DNA of 64,000 nt from assembly GCA_965221165.1 (NCBI GenBank), contig CBDCRP010000003.1, forward strand, positions 832,001-896,000. Direction: 5' to 3'. This document shows, piece after piece, positions 48,437 through 57,745 of this stretch (positions are counted from its first letter, which is position 1; the number at the start of each line of letters is the position of its first letter). This stretch comes from a bacterium. GTDB lineage: Bacteria > UBA8248. Both the position numbers and the translations under genes were made by a program. The notes beneath the pieces are model-generated. The model did no database searches. It was not told the origin of the DNA and worked only from the letters and a program-made list of their open reading frames with translations.

Positions 48437-50941
48437 ATGACGCGAAAACCCCGAACGCATCGTCCCAGAAGAACGACGCCTCCCCCCCAGACGGGCCTGT
48501 TCCCCGAGGACGGCAACGAACTGACCGGCGTGGTGGAACGGGTACGCTTCCGCGCGGAGGACACGGGCTACAGCGTCTTGCTCGTCCAGCCGGACAACGC
48601 GGATTTTCCGCGCGTGGCCGTGGTGGGCCATCTCTCCTCCATCCGAGAGGGAGAGCGCGTCCGGTTCGAGGGCGTCTGGAAGGATCACCCCAGGTTCGGT
48701 CGCCAGTTCCATGCCGAACTCGCCCGTCCGCTGCCGCCCACGACGGTCGAGGGAATCGAAAAATATCTGGCCTCGGGCATCGTGAAGAACATCGGCCCCG
48801 CCCTGGCCAGGCGCATCGTGGCGCGCTTCGGTGAAAAATCGCTCGAGGTGCTCGACAACCATCCCGAACGGCTCACGGAAGTCAACGGGCTGGGCGAGAA
48901 GAAGCTGGAAACTATCATCGAGAGTTGGAAGAGCCAGAGCGAGGTCAAGGAGATCATGCTCTTCCTCCGGCAATACGACATCCCGCTGCACATGTCGGAG
49001 AAAATTCTGAGAACCTACGGCGAAGCCTCCATCTCGATTCTCCGCGAAGACCCCTATCGCCTGGCGGCGGAGATTCACGGCGTGGGCTTCAAGAGCGCGG
49101 ACCGCATCGCGCAGCGGCTGGGGATTCCCCCCGACTCGCCCAAGCGCCTGGCGGCGGGAGCCGTCTACGTGCTGAACCAGCTCGCCGAGCGCGAGGGCCA
49201 CTGCTTTCTGCCTTATGGGAACCTGGTCGAGACCGCCGCCGAAATGCTCGAGACCGAAGCAGACGCCCTCACCTCCATCCTGGAAAATCTCGGCCGGAGC
49301 GGCTCCCTGGTGATCCAATCGGCGAACATGATCGAAAACCTGGCCTCGGCCGAGGGCAAGCGGGTCTATGCCCGCCCCCTGTACGCCGCGGAATGCGAGG
49401 TCGCCCGCCGTCTCGCAGCACTCATCCAGACCCCGCGCGACGAGGCGCGTCTGGAAGCCGCCATGCGGGGACAAGGCGTGCCCGGAAGCACGACGGGAGA
49501 GCGCCTGGGCCACCTCGCCCGGCGCGCCCTGGAGGGCGGCATGGCCACCAAGGATCAGGGCGCCGCCATAGAGGGCGCGCTCACGCAAAAAGTACTCATC
49601 GTGACGGGAGGCCCCGGTACCGGCAAGACGACCATCGTGAGCGCCGTCACCAACCTCTATACGAAACTGGGCCTCCAGGTCATCCTGGGCGCACCCACGG
49701 GCCGGGCGGCCAAGCGCCTCTCCGAGGTCACAGGCCACGAGGCGGGCACCATCCACAGGTTGTTGGAGTTCAGCTGGCACTCGGGCGGCTTCACCCGCGA
49801 TGCGGAAAACCCGCTCACCGGCGACATCGTGATAATCGACGAGGCCTCGATGCTCGACGTGCACCTGACGGCCCACCTCTTGCGCGCGGTGCCGGACGCG
49901 GCGACACTCGTCCTCGTGGGCGACGTGGATCAGCTCCCCTCCGTGGGTCCCGGCAACATCCTGAGCGACGTCATCACCTCCGAAACACTGCCCGTAGTAA
50001 GGCTCACCGAGGTCTTCCGCCAGGCGCAGGAGAGTCTGATCGTCGAAAACGCCCACCGCGTGAACCGGGGAGAGATGCCCAGAAACGGCAAGGGAGAGCA
50101 AGAGGACAAGCCGCTCGATTACTACTTCATCGAAGAGAGTGAGGCGGAACGATGCGCGGACATCATCATCGAACTCTGCCGCGAGCGCATTCCCGAGAAA
50201 TTCGGGGTCGACCCCATCGCGGAGCTTCAGGTCATCTCCCCCATGCAGCGCGGCGTGCTCGGCGTACAGAGCCTGAACGCGCGCTTACAGGAAGCGCTCA
50301 ACCCCGCGGGCGCCGCGCCCGCCCTACAGAGCGGAGGGCGCACGTTCCGCACGCGCGACAAGCTCATCCAGGTGCGGAACAACTACGAGAAAGACGTGTT
50401 CAACGGCGACATCGGCGTCGTGCGCAGCGTCGCGCCCGAGGACGGGAGCATTCGCGTGGCCTTCGATTCGAATGTCGTCGAATATACGCGCGGCGCGCTG
50501 GATGAGGTGATGCACGCCTACGCCATCACCGTGCACAAGAGCCAGGGAAGCGAATACCCCGCCGTCGTCATCCCGCTGCACACCCAGCACTACCCGATGC
50601 TGCAAAGAAACCTCGTCTACACCGCCCTCACGCGGGCGAGGCGGCTCGTAGTGCTCGTCGGGGCGAAAAAAGCGCTCGGCATCGCGATAGGAAACGCGCG
50701 CGTGAGAAGAAGATGGAGCGGTCTGCCCGAGAGAATCCGCCGCGAGGCGAATCTCGCCCCGCTCCTCGAGGAGGCCTCCCCTCCCCCGCAGGACATCGAG
50801 GAAACACAAGACACCGGGGAGGACGAGGCGCAATTCACAGAAGACGCCCCGCCCGATTCCCTTTACGAGGATGAAGCGACCGGGGACGACGAGGACTCCC
50901 CGCCCGATAACGAACTGACCTACCACCCCGTGGACGAGTAG
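48437..50941 (+). CDS. recD2: ATP-dependent RecD2-like DNA helicase
   Basis: N-terminal OB/HhH region, TGGPGTGKTT, APTGRAAKR, IDEASM, GDVDQLPSVGPG and HKSQGSEY motifs. Confidence 0.94.
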   Translation: MTRKPRTHRPRRTTPPPQTGLFPEDGNELTGVVERVRFRAEDTGYSVLLVQPDNADFPRVAVVGHLSSIREGERVRFEGVWKDHPRFGRQFHAELARPLPPTTVEGIEKYLASGIVKNIGPALARRIVARFGEKSLEVLDNHPERLTEVNGLGEKKLETIIESWKSQSEVKEIMLFLRQYDIPLHMSEKILRTYGEASISILREDPYRLAAEIHGVGFKSADRIAQRLGIPPDSPKRLAAGAVYVLNQLAEREGHCFLPYGNLVETAAEMLETEADALTSILENLGRSGSLVIQSANMIENLASAEGKRVYARPLYAAECEVARRLAALIQTPRDEARLEAAMRGQGVPGSTTGERLGHLARRALEGGMATKDQGAAIEGALTQKVLIVTGGPGTGKTTIVSAVTNLYTKLGLQVILGAPTGRAAKRLSEVTGHEAGTIHRLLEFSWHSGGFTRDAENPLTGDIVIIDEASMLDVHLTAHLLRAVPDAATLVLVGDVDQLPSVGPGNILSDVITSETLPVVRLTEVFRQAQESLIVENAHRVNRGEMPRNGKGEQEDKPLDYYFIEESEAERCADIIIELCRERIPEKFGVDPIAELQVISPMQRGVLGVQSLNARLQEALNPAGAAPALQSGGRTFRTRDKLIQVRNNYEKDVFNGDIGVVRSVAPEDGSIRVAFDSNVVEYTRGALDEVMHAYAITVHKSQGSEYPAVVIPLHTQHYPMLQRNLVYTALTRARRLVVLVGAKKALGIAIGNARVRRRWSGLPERIRREANLAPLLEEASPPPQDIEETQDTGEDEAQFTEDAPPDSLYEDEATGDDEDSPPDNELTYHPVDE

Positions 50942-50958
50942 AAGACCATCGACGGAAT

Positions 50959-51012
50959 AAAAAAAAACCCGTCCCGGAGGACGGAGGCAGGATGGCTGCC
51001 GGGAAGCGGGTG
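50959..51012 (-). terminator. Probable rho-independent terminator for the minus-strand small ORF
   Basis: A-run (T-tract on the minus strand) adjacent to the CCCG-TCCCGG / CCGGGA-AG-CGGG inverted repeat. Confidence 0.55.
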
Positions 51013-51228
51013 TTACTTCGCCGTTCGCTCGATTAAAGTCTTGAGCGCGGTCATGGATTCGGCGTGATTTTTCATGACCTCCTCATGCCGTCTGGCACCG
51101 GTACTTTCCCGCAATTCCGAGGAGCGGCTCATCTGCTTCAAGCCCATCCAGATGAGCCCGCACTGCGCGAGCCCGATGAGGGACTGCATGGCGTAGAACC
51201 CGAGTGTCGCCGTCTCAAAACCGCTCAT
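51013..51228 (-). CDS. Small membrane-anchored hypothetical protein, copy 1 (71 aa, MSGFETATL...)
   Basis: RBS AAGGGG before ATG 51228; paralogous to 52307-52513; one hydrophobic helix plus a charged helix. Confidence 0.75.
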   Translation of the reverse strand: MSGFETATLGFYAMQSLIGLAQCGLIWMGLKQMSRSSELRESTGARRHEEVMKNHAESMTALKTLIERTAK

Positions 51229-51307
51229 TTCTTTCCCCTTGCGGGTCCTTGACTTTCCAATGCGAAACGCCGTGGCCTCGCCCCCATGGCTCGCAACCTG
51301 GGACAAA

Positions 51308-51350
51308 ATACTAGTCCCTTTTGCGCTCCCCCGCAAGATTCGGCTTTGCG
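51308..51350 (-). promoter_or_regulatory. Sigma70-like promoter plus candidate operator, copy 1
   Basis: TTGCGG-17 nt-TAGTAT; 21-mer at 51330-51350 identical to 52627-52647. Confidence 0.6.
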
Positions 51351-51510
51351 CGCTACAGAGAGAACCGACCCGCCACTCCATGGATGAGGAATAGTGGACG
51401 TCATCGTCTCGCCTAAATTTGTTGCTCATTTTATCGTTGTGTTATCTTGTCCCCAAGAGATTATTTTTGCACTCGGGCCATGAACGGGTACGAAAACAAG
51501 GAGCAGGGAA

Positions 51511-52200
51511 ATGGGGGAAATAATGGACGCTGATGATCCGAAAAATGGCGTGGCGGAGAACGAGAAGAAAGGCGAGGAAGTAATGATCGAAGAAGAAACT
51601 TTTGTCCTTCGAGTATTCTATCATGAGAGCCATATTCTCACGACGGGTGAGGCGCAAACACTCAATCAATCACGGCATAAACGCATCCGCAAAGCTGGTT
51701 TCGAGTTCAAAAAACAGGCCGACGACCTTACAAGCAATATAGCAAGCCACAACCAGTTGGCCGAGGTGTTCGAGTCCCCCATGGTGTATCGTAAGGGTCA
51801 TCCACTCACAGCGGACGATGCGAAAGAATGTGACGAATTACGTCGTGAGAACATTCGCGAATACGCAGAAAAACTCATCAGGAAGGCAAACGATCCAGAA
51901 GATTCAATGACAATGGAAGTGGCTCGCAAAGCCATCATGGATCATGACGAAACATATAAGTTACGGGCTAAGCCGAACCTTGTCGAGGTCGAGAAAGAAG
52001 CGAAAGAGTTCGCGGAAAAGGTCATCAAGCGTGAATTGAAAAACAAAGGCCACAAAATCACAGACATTGATAAAGATGAACTCAACACGGACATTGAAAA
52101 ACTCGCGAAAGATCCCCGTATTGTTGAATACGCCGAACGGAACGTTTCAGGTATAGACGCTCTCTCTGAGGAATTAAAATCAAAACTTTCAAAACTTTAG
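51511..52200 (+). CDS. Hypothetical highly charged helical protein (229 aa), lower GC
   Basis: Long ORF in a compositionally distinct segment; internal repeated motif. Confidence 0.75.
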   Translation: MGEIMDADDPKNGVAENEKKGEEVMIEEETFVLRVFYHESHILTTGEAQTLNQSRHKRIRKAGFEFKKQADDLTSNIASHNQLAEVFESPMVYRKGHPLTADDAKECDELRRENIREYAEKLIRKANDPEDSMTMEVARKAIMDHDETYKLRAKPNLVEVEKEAKEFAEKVIKRELKNKGHKITDIDKDELNTDIEKLAKDPRIVEYAERNVSGIDALSEELKSKLSKL

Positions 52201-52306
52201 TGGTGTTGGGGTCTTGGCGAGCTATCGGATTGATCTTCTCTGTACAGTGAAGACAGGGGCAATATTGCCGAATCGCCCTCTCTGCCCTCCTTGAAAGGGG
52301 CAGGAA

Positions 52307-52513
52307 TTATTTTCCCGTTCGTTCGATGAGCGCCTCGAGCGCGGTCATCGATTCCTCATGCCGTCTGGCACCCTCCCTTTCCCGCAATTCCGAAGAGCGG
52401 TCCATCTGCTTCAAGCCTTTCCATATAAGAAAACATTGAACGCTTCCTACGATGAGAGCTACAGTGCTCTGAATGCCTGATGCCCAAAGTGTGGCTGTTT
52501 CAAAACCCGTCAT
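52307..52513 (-). CDS. Small membrane-anchored hypothetical protein, copy 2 (68 aa, MTGFETATL...)
   Basis: RBS AAGGGGG; paralogue of 51013-51228. Confidence 0.75.
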   Translation of the reverse strand: MTGFETATLWASGIQSTVALIVGSVQCFLIWKGLKQMDRSSELREREGARRHEESMTALEALIERTGK

Positions 52514-52604
52514 TCCTTCCCCCTTACGGGTCCTCTGTCGTTACATTGAAAACCTCGTGGGCCCAGGGCGCCGCACCCTGCGTTGCTCGCAATCTCAGAC
52601 AAAA

Positions 52605-52647
52605 ACACTACCCGCTTTTCCGCTCTCCCGCAAGATTCGGCTTTGCG
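52605..52647 (-). promoter_or_regulatory. Sigma70-like promoter plus candidate operator, copy 2
   Basis: TTGCGG-17 nt-TAGTGT; shares the 21-mer with copy 1. Confidence 0.6.
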
Positions 52648-52652
52648 TGCGA

Positions 52653-53687
52653 TCAGGGCGTGAGCACCACCTTGAGAGACTCGCCCGCTTGGGCGACGAG
52701 GCGGAAACCCTCCTGCGCCTGCGCGAGCGGGAGCCTGTGGGTGATCATTGCCTCGGCCTCTATGCGTCCGGCGCGAATGAGCGCCAGCGCTTCTTCCAGG
52801 TCGAGCGGGGCCGCGCCGTAGGTGGTGGTGATGCTTATCTGCTCGCTCCAGATTCTGTTCAGGTCCATCTCGGGGTGATGGCCCGGCGGCGTGGGGGCGA
52901 AGAGCTGCAAGACCCCGCAAGTTGCGACGCACGAGAGAGCCGTACTCAAAGCCTCGGGGGCGCCAGCGCACAGGATGACGCGATCCGCCAGCCGGCCGTC
53001 GTTCGCCTCCCGTAGAGCCCCCGCCATATCCTCGCATGGAGGCAGGGCATGCGCGCCGAACCGCTCGGCGGTCCTCAGACGATAGGGGTGAATATCCGTC
53101 GCGAAAACGGGCCCCGCTCCCAGGAGACGCGCCGCCTGCACGTGCAATAACCCTGACATGCCGCTTCCCACCACGAGGACGCTCAGACCCGGCGTCATCC
53201 GAAAGCGCCTCCAGCCGCGCAGAACGCAGCCCAGCGGCTCGACGAACACGCCCGCATCGTCGGACACCTCATCGGGCAGATGGAACGTGCCCCGCTCCAC
53301 GTTGATGGCGGGCACCCGGATGAATTCGGCGAAACCGCCCGGGTCGAAATTCGTGCTTTTGAGAGTCGCGCAGGCGGTGTGGTCTCCGCGCAGGCAAAGC
53401 GCGCAGCGGTTGCACGGCACGTGATGGGTGACCATGACGCGATCGCCGGGCCGGAAACTCTCCACCCCATCGCCCGTCTCTGCGACCACGCCCGTCACCT
53501 CGTGGCCCAGAACGCGCGGCGCGCTCTTGACGCGGTACCACTCCATGACGTCGCTGCCGCAGATGCCGATCGCGCGCGTCTCGATGAGAAGCTCGCCCGC
53601 TCCGGCGCGGGGTTTTTCTACCTCCACGATTCGCACGTCATCGTTTCGGTAATAAACCGCCGCTCGCATGGTTTCCGGCATTTTCAT
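52653..53687 (-). CDS. Zinc-dependent medium-chain alcohol/polyol dehydrogenase
   Basis: GICGSD, GHE..G, C..C..C.......C zinc motifs, EPLGC, G.G..GL and ITHR motifs. Confidence 0.9.
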   Translation of the reverse strand: MKMPETMRAAVYYRNDDVRIVEVEKPRAGAGELLIETRAIGICGSDVMEWYRVKSAPRVLGHEVTGVVAETGDGVESFRPGDRVMVTHHVPCNRCALCLRGDHTACATLKSTNFDPGGFAEFIRVPAINVERGTFHLPDEVSDDAGVFVEPLGCVLRGWRRFRMTPGLSVLVVGSGMSGLLHVQAARLLGAGPVFATDIHPYRLRTAERFGAHALPPCEDMAGALREANDGRLADRVILCAGAPEALSTALSCVATCGVLQLFAPTPPGHHPEMDLNRIWSEQISITTTYGAAPLDLEEALALIRAGRIEAEAMITHRLPLAQAQEGFRLVAQAGESLKVVLTP

Positions 53688-57610: not shown

Positions 57611-57745
57611 GCAGGGGCGGGCACATGGGTGGCGAACATGTATGTTCGACCCTACGAAGCATCACACCCTCGACCTTGCATTTCACCACCTCGCCGTTGC
57701 GGTGTCATTCCCTCCCTGGTCGGGTTTGATGCCGGAATGACGACG
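57611..57745. repeat. REP-like palindrome cluster B
   Basis: GCAGGGGCGG...CGAACAT/ATGTTCG...CCCTAC and GTCATTCC...GGAATGAC inverted repeats. Confidence 0.5.

Follow-up and report, generated by a model that had tools for sequence, protein, structure and literature searches.

Two related small genes that lie in the same orientation on either side of a foreign-looking gene raise the question of whether they form a toxin-like module, a device that captures cargo genes, or something else. We addressed this question in a 64,000-nucleotide stretch of a bacterial genome of the lineage UBA8248 (positions 832,001 to 896,000 of contig CBDCRP010000003.1, assembly GCA_965221165.1), hereafter called the window, in which open reading frames (ORFs) A and B, of 71 and 68 amino acids (aa), flank a gene for a 229-aa protein. 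A first-pass annotation of the window had described the pair as duplicated, co-regulated cassettes for toxin-, holin- or exclusion-like peptides, whose repeats might act as recombination flanks. Our comparisons indicate instead that both cassettes belong, side by side, to a tandem array of variable size, located at a fixed chromosomal site between genes for a recD2-like helicase and an alcohol dehydrogenase (adh), and that the 229-aa gene is evidently an unrelated foreign insertion into this array. The best overall explanation, to which we assign a probability of roughly 0.45, is that the array members belong to a family of bitopic membrane proteins expanded within a genus of Nitrospinota, and that their tails would be His/Met rods tuned in length by repeats.

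The relatedness of the two units, and their common orientation on the minus strand, stood up to alignment: the A and B units align over 459 columns with a mean column identity of 79%, and three direct repeats (77 nt at 86%, 55 nt at 76% and 49 nt at 86% identity) join them. Two indels, both in frame, separate the proteins. The one in the helix corresponds to a single 7-residue HxExM heptad, and the one in the hydrophobic segment to four residues, which divide two subtypes of transmembrane (TM) segment. The ratio of nonsynonymous to synonymous substitution rates (dN/dS) between A and B is 0.25 (dN 0.23, dS 0.92). The proposal that the in-frame indels point to selection on the protein is thus borne out, and the pair descends from a duplication that is old and has been under purifying selection, rather than from a recent neutral one.

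To which family do these proteins belong? The genome was searched in six frames with ORF B, and a hidden Markov model built from the N-terminal 60 residues of the 11 members found then recovered the identical 11 ORFs (68 to 305 aa) and no others. A profile of eight members matched 589 proteins at E<=1e-3 in a 90%-identity collection, and 510 representatives were found at 50% identity, 136 of them at E<=1e-10. Counted over the relatives, as the first-pass annotation had proposed, family matches occur in 22/22 genomes of the genus (1 to 32 each), in 0/19 genomes from eight other genera of the same family, and in 1/9 genomes from the other families of the phylum. Divergent members, several copies each, are found on other chromosomes of 3.3 to 8.7 Mb. 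Curated libraries were silent. ORF A has no Pfam match; the only one for ORF B is VTT_dom (E 0.18, 12.7 bits against a cut-off of 33.9), and seven paralogues have no Pfam match attributable to homology. The 305-aa paralogue (L008) nominally passes for DUF2383 (31.1 bits, cut-off 30.8), Sigma70_r1_1 (28, cut-off 22.5) and PRESAN (27.7, cut-off 23.7), matches that we read as probably driven by its repeats. ORFs A and B match nothing in NCBIfam, PHROGs or PADLOC, and a profile search of the PDB returned no match at E<=1. In the available portions of the literature on the motif strings, on membrane proteins with His/Met heptad coiled coils and on the genomics of Nitrospinota sponge symbionts, no description of the family was found, and the accessible part of PMC10839748 makes no mention of it. 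The annotated family of single-TM helical proteins, encoded by selected genes, is therefore very probably both real and undescribed.

The locus is conserved in all ten related genomes compared (L025-L034), in the order recD2-like gene, array, adh, aldolase gene and HD gene, with protein identities of 87 to 94% for the locus genes; the orthologues of ORF A are 87% (L025) and 85% (L026) identical to it. Between recD2 and adh, these genomes carry 1, 1, 2, 2, 3, 3, 3, 3, 4 and 4 family genes, in one orientation and about 220 nt apart, which together with the two of the window make 28 array genes. Arrays of up to five genes occur at other loci in the relatives. The array proteins span 64 to 97 aa, and their lengths fall into two series, 64/71/78/85/92 and 68/75/82/89, each rising by steps of 7 aa as the count of (K/N)NH(A/E)E(S/T/N)M heptads goes from 1 to 5. 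The two series are set apart by the four-residue TM indel, A and B being one of each subtype. Since both subtypes stand together in 5/11 genomes (the window, L026, L027, L030 and L033), the A/B split is older than the species. Over 372 pairs, the median dN/dS is 0.17, indicating real genes.

Periodicity is also visible in the DNA. A tandem repeat of 21-nt period (4.2 copies, 86% matches) was detected in L025, repeats of 21- and 75-nt period in one local paralogue, and repeats of 42-, 54- and 96-nt period in the 305-aa paralogue, while the gene unit is itself periodic at 477 nt. Two neighbouring genes of one relative (L030:3466-3714 and L030:3946-4194) encode identical 82-aa proteins and have near-identical upstream regions, which points to a probable recent duplication or gene conversion within arrays.

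All 11 members of the genome share an N-terminal motif, M-T-x-F/Y-E/Q-x-A-S/T-L, a hydrophobic helix that often contains G..QC, a basic stretch, a repeat region of variable length and a final AL+xLIERT-like motif. The tail repeats are in frame and measure 7, 11, 14 or 18 residues, and the conserved C-terminal helix reads ...HEESM(T/A)AL+xLIERT. Across the 377 collected family sequences, HxExM is present in 364 and a polar Q-C pair in the TM helix in 202. Lys and Arg average 0.40 in the 15 residues before the TM helix and 3.36 in the 15 after it, which, by the positive-inside rule, argues that the tail is cytoplasmic. An AlphaFold2 monomer model of a 92-aa orthologue is a single helix from residue 4 to 91, with pLDDT 88-93 over the repeats. 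A homo-oligomer prediction with four copies of the same protein gave a median of 0.41 against a mark of 0.42 (controls 0.00) and counts neither way. We consider a cytoplasmic helical rod probable. In many members, such as P0029, P0030, P0084, P0116 and P0239, the predicted external N-tail has also grown, by 7-residue (A/S)SLALQ(Q/E) repeats, so that heptad growth is possible on both sides of the membrane.

The spacing of His, Met and Glu was compared with shuffled controls in 235 tails of family members in which the C-terminal motif is present. His is followed by Met at lag 4 in 766 cases (70 expected) and Met by His at lag 3 in 210 (67 expected). His-His pairs are in excess at lag 7 (238 observed, 45 expected) and lag 11 (227, 44), as are Met-Met pairs at the same lags (217 against 70, and 224 against 65), and Glu follows His at lag 2 in 755 cases (139 expected). 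In heptad register, Met occupies position a and His position d, and the register continues into the C-terminal motif with Leu at d and Ile at a. The tails are nearly devoid of Cys (0.04 per sequence) and contain 14% Arg.

These features can be assembled into a mechanism. Each protein would be one long helix, consisting of a short acidic N-tail (MTxFExAxL) outside, the TM helix, a basic juxtamembrane segment and a cytoplasmic repeat tail; the tails would act as membrane-tethered helical rods, with their length set by the number of repeats. The His/Met stripe, on one helical face in most members, could let the tails associate with one another in a manner that depends on metal or pH, or buffer metal on the inner side of the membrane, and the invariant C-terminal helix may offer a common interaction surface. 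Slippage of the 21-nt unit and unequal crossing-over between genes would supply the variation in rod length and copy number. We infer topology, formation of rods or oligomers, dependence on metal or pH, and any partner. By analogy with known His/Met proteins, a metal- or pH-dependent function of the stripe is a tentative suggestion, rather unlikely as matters stand. Still more speculative is the idea that the family represents a new class of membrane-tethered, His/Met/Glu-lined bundles whose role, on the cytoplasmic side of the membrane, would be the storage, buffering or sensing of a transition metal (Cu, Ag, Zn, Ni or Fe) or of pH, with a capacity tuned by 21-nt slippage and by array expansion to about 30 copies per genome. 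Such bundles would resemble the Csp copper-storage bundles and SilE/PcoE in function, with unrelated sequences.

Several observations weigh against this picture. According to the available part of PMC5008109, metal sites built from Met and His typically occur in periplasmic Cu/Ag proteins, yet the tails here are predicted to be cytoplasmic. In 4/11 members of the genome any HxxxM motif is lacking, and ALIERT-like or REFIEQGRES repeats are found in its place; a function that depends on His/Met cannot therefore be universal, and the universal parts are the N-terminal module, the TM helix and the C-terminal helix. The shortest members, at about 2.5 heptads, fall on the short side for a stable coiled coil. 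None of the nine loci of the genome adjoins a metal-homeostasis gene, and an all-against-all comparison of the ORFs within 6 kb of these loci revealed no recurrent partner. Finally, in the hairpin predicted in the shared 5' untranslated region (5'UTR), compensatory changes occur at no pair (RNAalifold, 24 UTRs).

Comparison with described proteins sharpens what is distinctive. Motif 2 of SilE, HxxMxxxHxxMxx, brings His and Met together on one face of the helix, and SilE folds into helices upon binding of Ag+ or Cu (PMC5008109, as far as its accessible text goes). Like SilE and PcoE, the periplasmic Ag+/Cu+ 'molecular sponges' encoded by the sil and pco operons, the family has helix-forming repeats, here of the pattern HxExMxxHxExM, with His/Met on one face at 7-residue periodicity. 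The i+3/i+4 spacing of His and Met is likewise found, His-Met at lag 4 being eleven-fold and Met-His at lag 3 three-fold above shuffles, and both groups are nearly Cys-free. By contrast, Pfam, NCBIfam and PDB searches detect no homology with SilE/PcoE. SilE is a soluble periplasmic protein with a signal peptide, encoded in a metal-efflux operon, whereas the family is membrane-anchored and predicted to face the cytoplasm; its conserved N- and C-terminal modules are missing from SilE. Unlike SilE/PcoE, it is multi-copy (10-30 per genome), has no metal-efflux neighbours and includes local members without HxxxM.

In overall plan the family recalls PspB, YhcB/ZapG (DUF1043) and EzrA, small bitopic coiled-coil membrane proteins with the N-terminus out and the C-terminus in, which are single-copy and of fixed length. 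They share with it a short external N-tail, one TM helix, a cytoplasmic helical or coiled-coil tail and small size. However, no Pfam match to them appears at E<=1, and the family differs by its many paralogues, its repeat-length variation and its own terminal motifs. Two other resemblances were considered and dropped. A lipoprotein reading of 'LAQC' fails on the residue at position -1, which is always Gln, and on an N-region without positive charge. In type IV pilins, the consensus has Glu at +5; in 'MTGFE' the Glu is at +2 and the Gly is unconserved.

The predicted topology could also be reversed, with the N-terminus inside and the C-terminus outside. The proteins would then be periplasmic rods that space or tether the envelope, like Lpp or an i-spanin, or membrane-anchored His/Met sponges for Cu or Ag, like SilE/PcoE. 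The periplasmic habit of His/Met motifs (PMC5008109, in its available part), the variation of rod length by heptad steps, the C-terminal Lys of the array genes and a weak PHROG match of one paralogue to 'Rz-like spanin' (E 0.051) all agree with this arrangement, but the family as a whole does not conserve the C-terminal Lys, the acidic N-tail has no n-region of a signal peptide, the tails are rich in Arg, no lipobox is present, and the distribution of Lys and Arg around the TM helix runs the other way. We consider the reverse topology improbable, and the cytoplasmic rod is retained.

How are the array genes expressed? In an alignment of the 200 nt 5' of the 28 array genes from 11 genomes, we found a conserved block, CCGAATCTTGC(G/A)G, covering the -35 box; a -10 box, TAGT(G/A), 17 nt downstream of it; a 5'-proximal stem-loop, TTGCGGGCCATGG...CCGTGGCGTTCGCA; and a GACCCG box directly ahead of a purine-rich ribosome-binding site (RBS). 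Each ORF thus has its own promoter region, 5'UTR and RBS, as expected of the self-contained units first described, and each array gene appears to be an autonomous transcription unit. The annotated promoter, TTGCGG-17-TAGT(A/G)T, holds in part: hexamers and spacing are present in both units, but a strict sigma-70 consensus scan called no promoter in the region, these hexamers included.

The operator attached to this promoter fared less well. It had been deduced from a 21-mer, identical in the two units, that contains a CGCAA-N9-TTGCG dyad. The 21-mer is exact ahead of A and B, but its left arm, CGCAAAGCC, varies freely across the 28 array genes and the right half, CCGAATCTTGC, alone is kept, leaving the operator reading unsupported. 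At up to three mismatches, the 21-mer occurs twice in the 3.69-Mb genome, ahead of A and of B (reversed control, 0). Because there are only these two occurrences, and the other paralogues have different promoters (three with TTGACG-17-TATAGT), it provides no genome-wide regulon signal and, against expectation, does not precede each family copy. The shared 21-mer is the conserved -35 block together with neighbouring bases that are shared by chance or were homogenised by gene conversion. The hairpin described downstream of each unit is confirmed for ORF A, where it forms a canonical terminator of the type found after the array genes of the relatives (upstream alignment, left ends). The hairpin beside ORF B scores on the plus strand only, which fits the 229-aa gene rather than ORF B, and it most likely terminates that gene.

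For the 24 UTRs, RNAalifold predicts a hairpin of 11 stem pairs at -13.6 kcal/mol, in which one pair is U-G for U-A in 12/24 sequences, making a structured 5'UTR plausible. ORF B has a variant with a longer, different hairpin, common to three relatives. Rfam returned no relevant match, only two chance snoRNA-like ones (E 0.3-0.75). An upstream ORF within the hairpin, starting at the ATG of CCATGG, was rejected, as its frame is broken by 1-nt indels between copies. Several other paralogues keep a GAGGACCC box 20-45 nt ahead of the start codon, and an (A/G)AGGACCC box stands at this distance even in distant paralogues with different promoters. A role in translational control, or as a standby site, is conceivable for this box, as is that of one of the two GGA motifs recognised by a CsrA-type regulator.

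The conserved 5'UTRs would be compatible with a cis-encoded antisense RNA. Autonomous units, multi-copy and in tandem, with long, conserved and structured 5'UTRs, would also suit a second alternative: that the proteins are peptides that form pores or disrupt membranes (type I toxins, BhlA-like holins, viroporin-like channels or exclusion proteins), whose TM helices oligomerise via the Q-C pair while the tail gates or regulates the pore. A small protein with one N-terminal TM helix and a charged helical tail recalls the BhlA/UviB-type holins (PF10960) and type I toxins such as Hok, Ldr and TxpA, the latter also forming tandem multi-copy loci with structured 5'UTRs. The polar pair in the TM helix would suit it, and the nearest ESM Atlas cluster, at 0.88 (threshold 0.9) and with 168 shared features, carries PF10960 Holin_BhlA in 28% of its members, a lead only. 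However, no Pfam holin or toxin, PF10960 included, matches even at E<=1, no PHROG lysis family matches below E 0.05, and neither A nor B has a match in PADLOC. Viral contigs, phage records and plasmids yielded no relatives, and there is no endolysin, spanin or defence partner among the neighbours of eight paralogue loci. Type I toxins are small hydrophobic proteins, usually of <60 aa; here, the array genes encode 64-97 aa with a mostly hydrophilic tail, the family reaches 305 aa, the hydrophilic C-terminus is its most conserved part, and its many copies per genome are under purifying selection. The toxin, holin or exclusion role first put forward is therefore not sustained, and a membrane-disrupting peptide seems to us as improbable as the reverse topology.

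What, then, of the gene between the two copies? The first-pass annotation was right that a 229-aa gene of lower GC content lies there on the opposite strand: GC is 40-49% over the gene and about 65% in its flanks. In blastn comparisons with six related arrays, homology is confined to 50900-51388 and 52297-52748, which identifies the segment between them as an insertion. It interrupts the array at a point where two array genes would normally be separated by a spacer and a terminator, both of which it replaces. Three further runs, from three other studies, contain contigs about 97% identical over 51305-52332, a span that extends from promoter A through the 229-aa gene to the 3' end of B, so the arrangement is real and common to close relatives. 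A one-copy allele, suggested in three runs by a join that skips 1404 nt (51252 to 52657), was set aside, the 21 nt on its shorter side being too short for trust.

The 229-aa protein has three homologues only in 5.8 billion proteins (93, 79 and 76% identity; 229-233 aa). With the 229-aa query, the gene was found in 0/22 genomes of the genus, and searches of metagenome and viral contigs and of phage and plasmid records likewise found none. Pfam, NCBIfam, PHROG and PADLOC gave no match, the ESM Atlas yields no usable one, and the AlphaFold2 model is unreliable (pLDDT 47.5, pTM 0.29). The ORF is open in all four homologues, the closest of which differs at about 7% of residues, and among the differences listed for the related contigs, 7/10 fall at first codon positions; the ORF seems to evolve fast.

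Might the cassettes nevertheless be integron-like recombination flanks that mobilise cargo such as this gene? A foreign, low-GC gene placed exactly between two direct repeats of about 79% identity, and its persistence in the ~97% identical contigs, would be expected of such flanks, and type IIG restriction-modification genes, which are typically variable regions, adjoin two of the eight further paralogue loci. Yet no gene lies between copies in any of 10 syntenic arrays or of 11 other family loci from relatives, which argues that cargo capture is not a property of the family; the sole larger gap between copies, 733 nt in L024, consists of sequence like that of repetitive extragenic palindromes (REPs). 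No integrase or transposase, terminal inverted repeats or target duplication was seen at 51389 or 52296, and the only ORF of the insertion is the 229-aa ORFan, no recombinase being encoded. Unlike integron-like capture systems, the arrays thus show neither variable foreign genes between copies nor a recombinase ORF in the insertion, and with the 229-aa gene itself not found by this query in the genus genomes searched, the suggestion that the cassettes capture varying cargo is largely refuted and its probability very low. Weakest of all is a neutral local duplication of spurious or non-functional frames, which has short length and missing annotation in its favour, nothing more, and is refuted by the dN/dS values for A and B and across the arrays, by indels in frame and in heptad steps, and by a family present in every genus genome and in hundreds of clusters.

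The surroundings of the other members add further observations. Within 6 kb of the nine loci, the comparison picked up family members, short dispersed repeats and a few isolated pairwise similarities, each shared by two loci (an ADH-like one, one of the aconitase family and a third), and nothing else. The neighbours at the eight other paralogue loci are housekeeping genes. At two of these loci a type IIG restriction-modification gene (MmeI-like in one case, Eco57I/N6_Mtase-like in the other) lies within about 0.4-1.8 kb, which suggests that some paralogues may reside in variable or defence-type regions. Dispersed repeats resembling REPs or miniature inverted-repeat transposable elements (40-130 nt, 75-96% identity) occur at ~57615-57658 of the window and at dozens of sites in the genome, for example G000:C3:1926195-1926414, 1988423-1988638 and 2035766-2035926; some lie near family loci, without specificity for them. 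Arrays of related short units are present at G000:C1:9728-10091 and C3:1061589-1061829. Table 1 collects the coordinates of the features.

Table 1. Features of the locus and related sites; positions are those of the window unless a genome or locus label is given.
Feature	Position	Strand	Details
ORF A	51013-51228	minus	71 aa, start MSGFETATL; TM subtype 'GFYxxQS-IGLAQC', 2 HxExM units, C-terminal ALKTLIERTAK
5'UTR of ORF A	51229-51303	minus	conserved 5'-proximal stem-loop ~51261-51296, GGACCCG box, purine-rich RBS
Promoter region of ORF A	51308-51350	minus	-10 TAGTAT 51308-51313; -35 TTGCGG 51331-51336
Conserved block CCGAATCTTGCGG in the ORF A promoter	51331-51343	minus	
21-mer upstream of ORF A	51330-51350	minus	exact
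Intrinsic terminator of ORF A	50959-50985	minus	hairpin TCCGTCCTCCGGGACGGG at 50968-50985, then T9; terminator scan
ORF B	52307-52513	minus	68 aa, start MTGFETATL; TM subtype 'WASGIQSTVALIVGSVQC', 1 HxExM unit, C-terminal ALEALIERTGK
5'UTR and promoter region of ORF B	52514-52647	minus	-10 TAGTGT 52605-52610; -35 TTGCGG 52628-52633; 21-mer 52627-52647
Low-GC insertion	51389-52296	plus	~908 bp, lineage-specific
229-aa ORFan gene	51511-52200	plus	inside the insertion; K/E-rich, predicted helical
Terminator-like hairpin with T-rich tail	52281-52304	plus	terminator scan; beside ORF B
(A/G)AGGACCC box, window	51250-51256; 52538-52545		
(A/G)AGGACCC box, paralogues	G000:C3:1551234, 1776730, 1926641, 2036811; C2:932302		
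Type IIG gene	L045:7232-10015	minus	G000:C3 ~667.5-670.3 kb
Type IIG gene	L048:5622-8693	plus	G000:C3 1927.2-1930.3 kb

Taken together, these results bear on both the family and its hosts. The 'promoter/operator dyad' proved to be a guess that phylogenetic footprinting can test, and here rejects. Provided that this reading of the family is correct, it ranks among the most expanded gene families of this Nitrospinota genus, with at most about 30 paralogues per 4-Mb genome, and it was missed by every curated library searched; a family profile would give a name to several hundred clusters now called 'hypothetical'. The repeat-tuned His/Met rod is, as a lead drawn from sequence, the most interesting one that can be tested. 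With a fixed anchor, a fixed C-terminal helix and a rod that differs by heptad steps between species and between neighbouring genes, the family would provide a test bed for how repeat slippage tunes coiled coils. Should the stripe indeed bind metal, it would represent a new solution to metal handling in an uncultured lineage of nitrite oxidisers.

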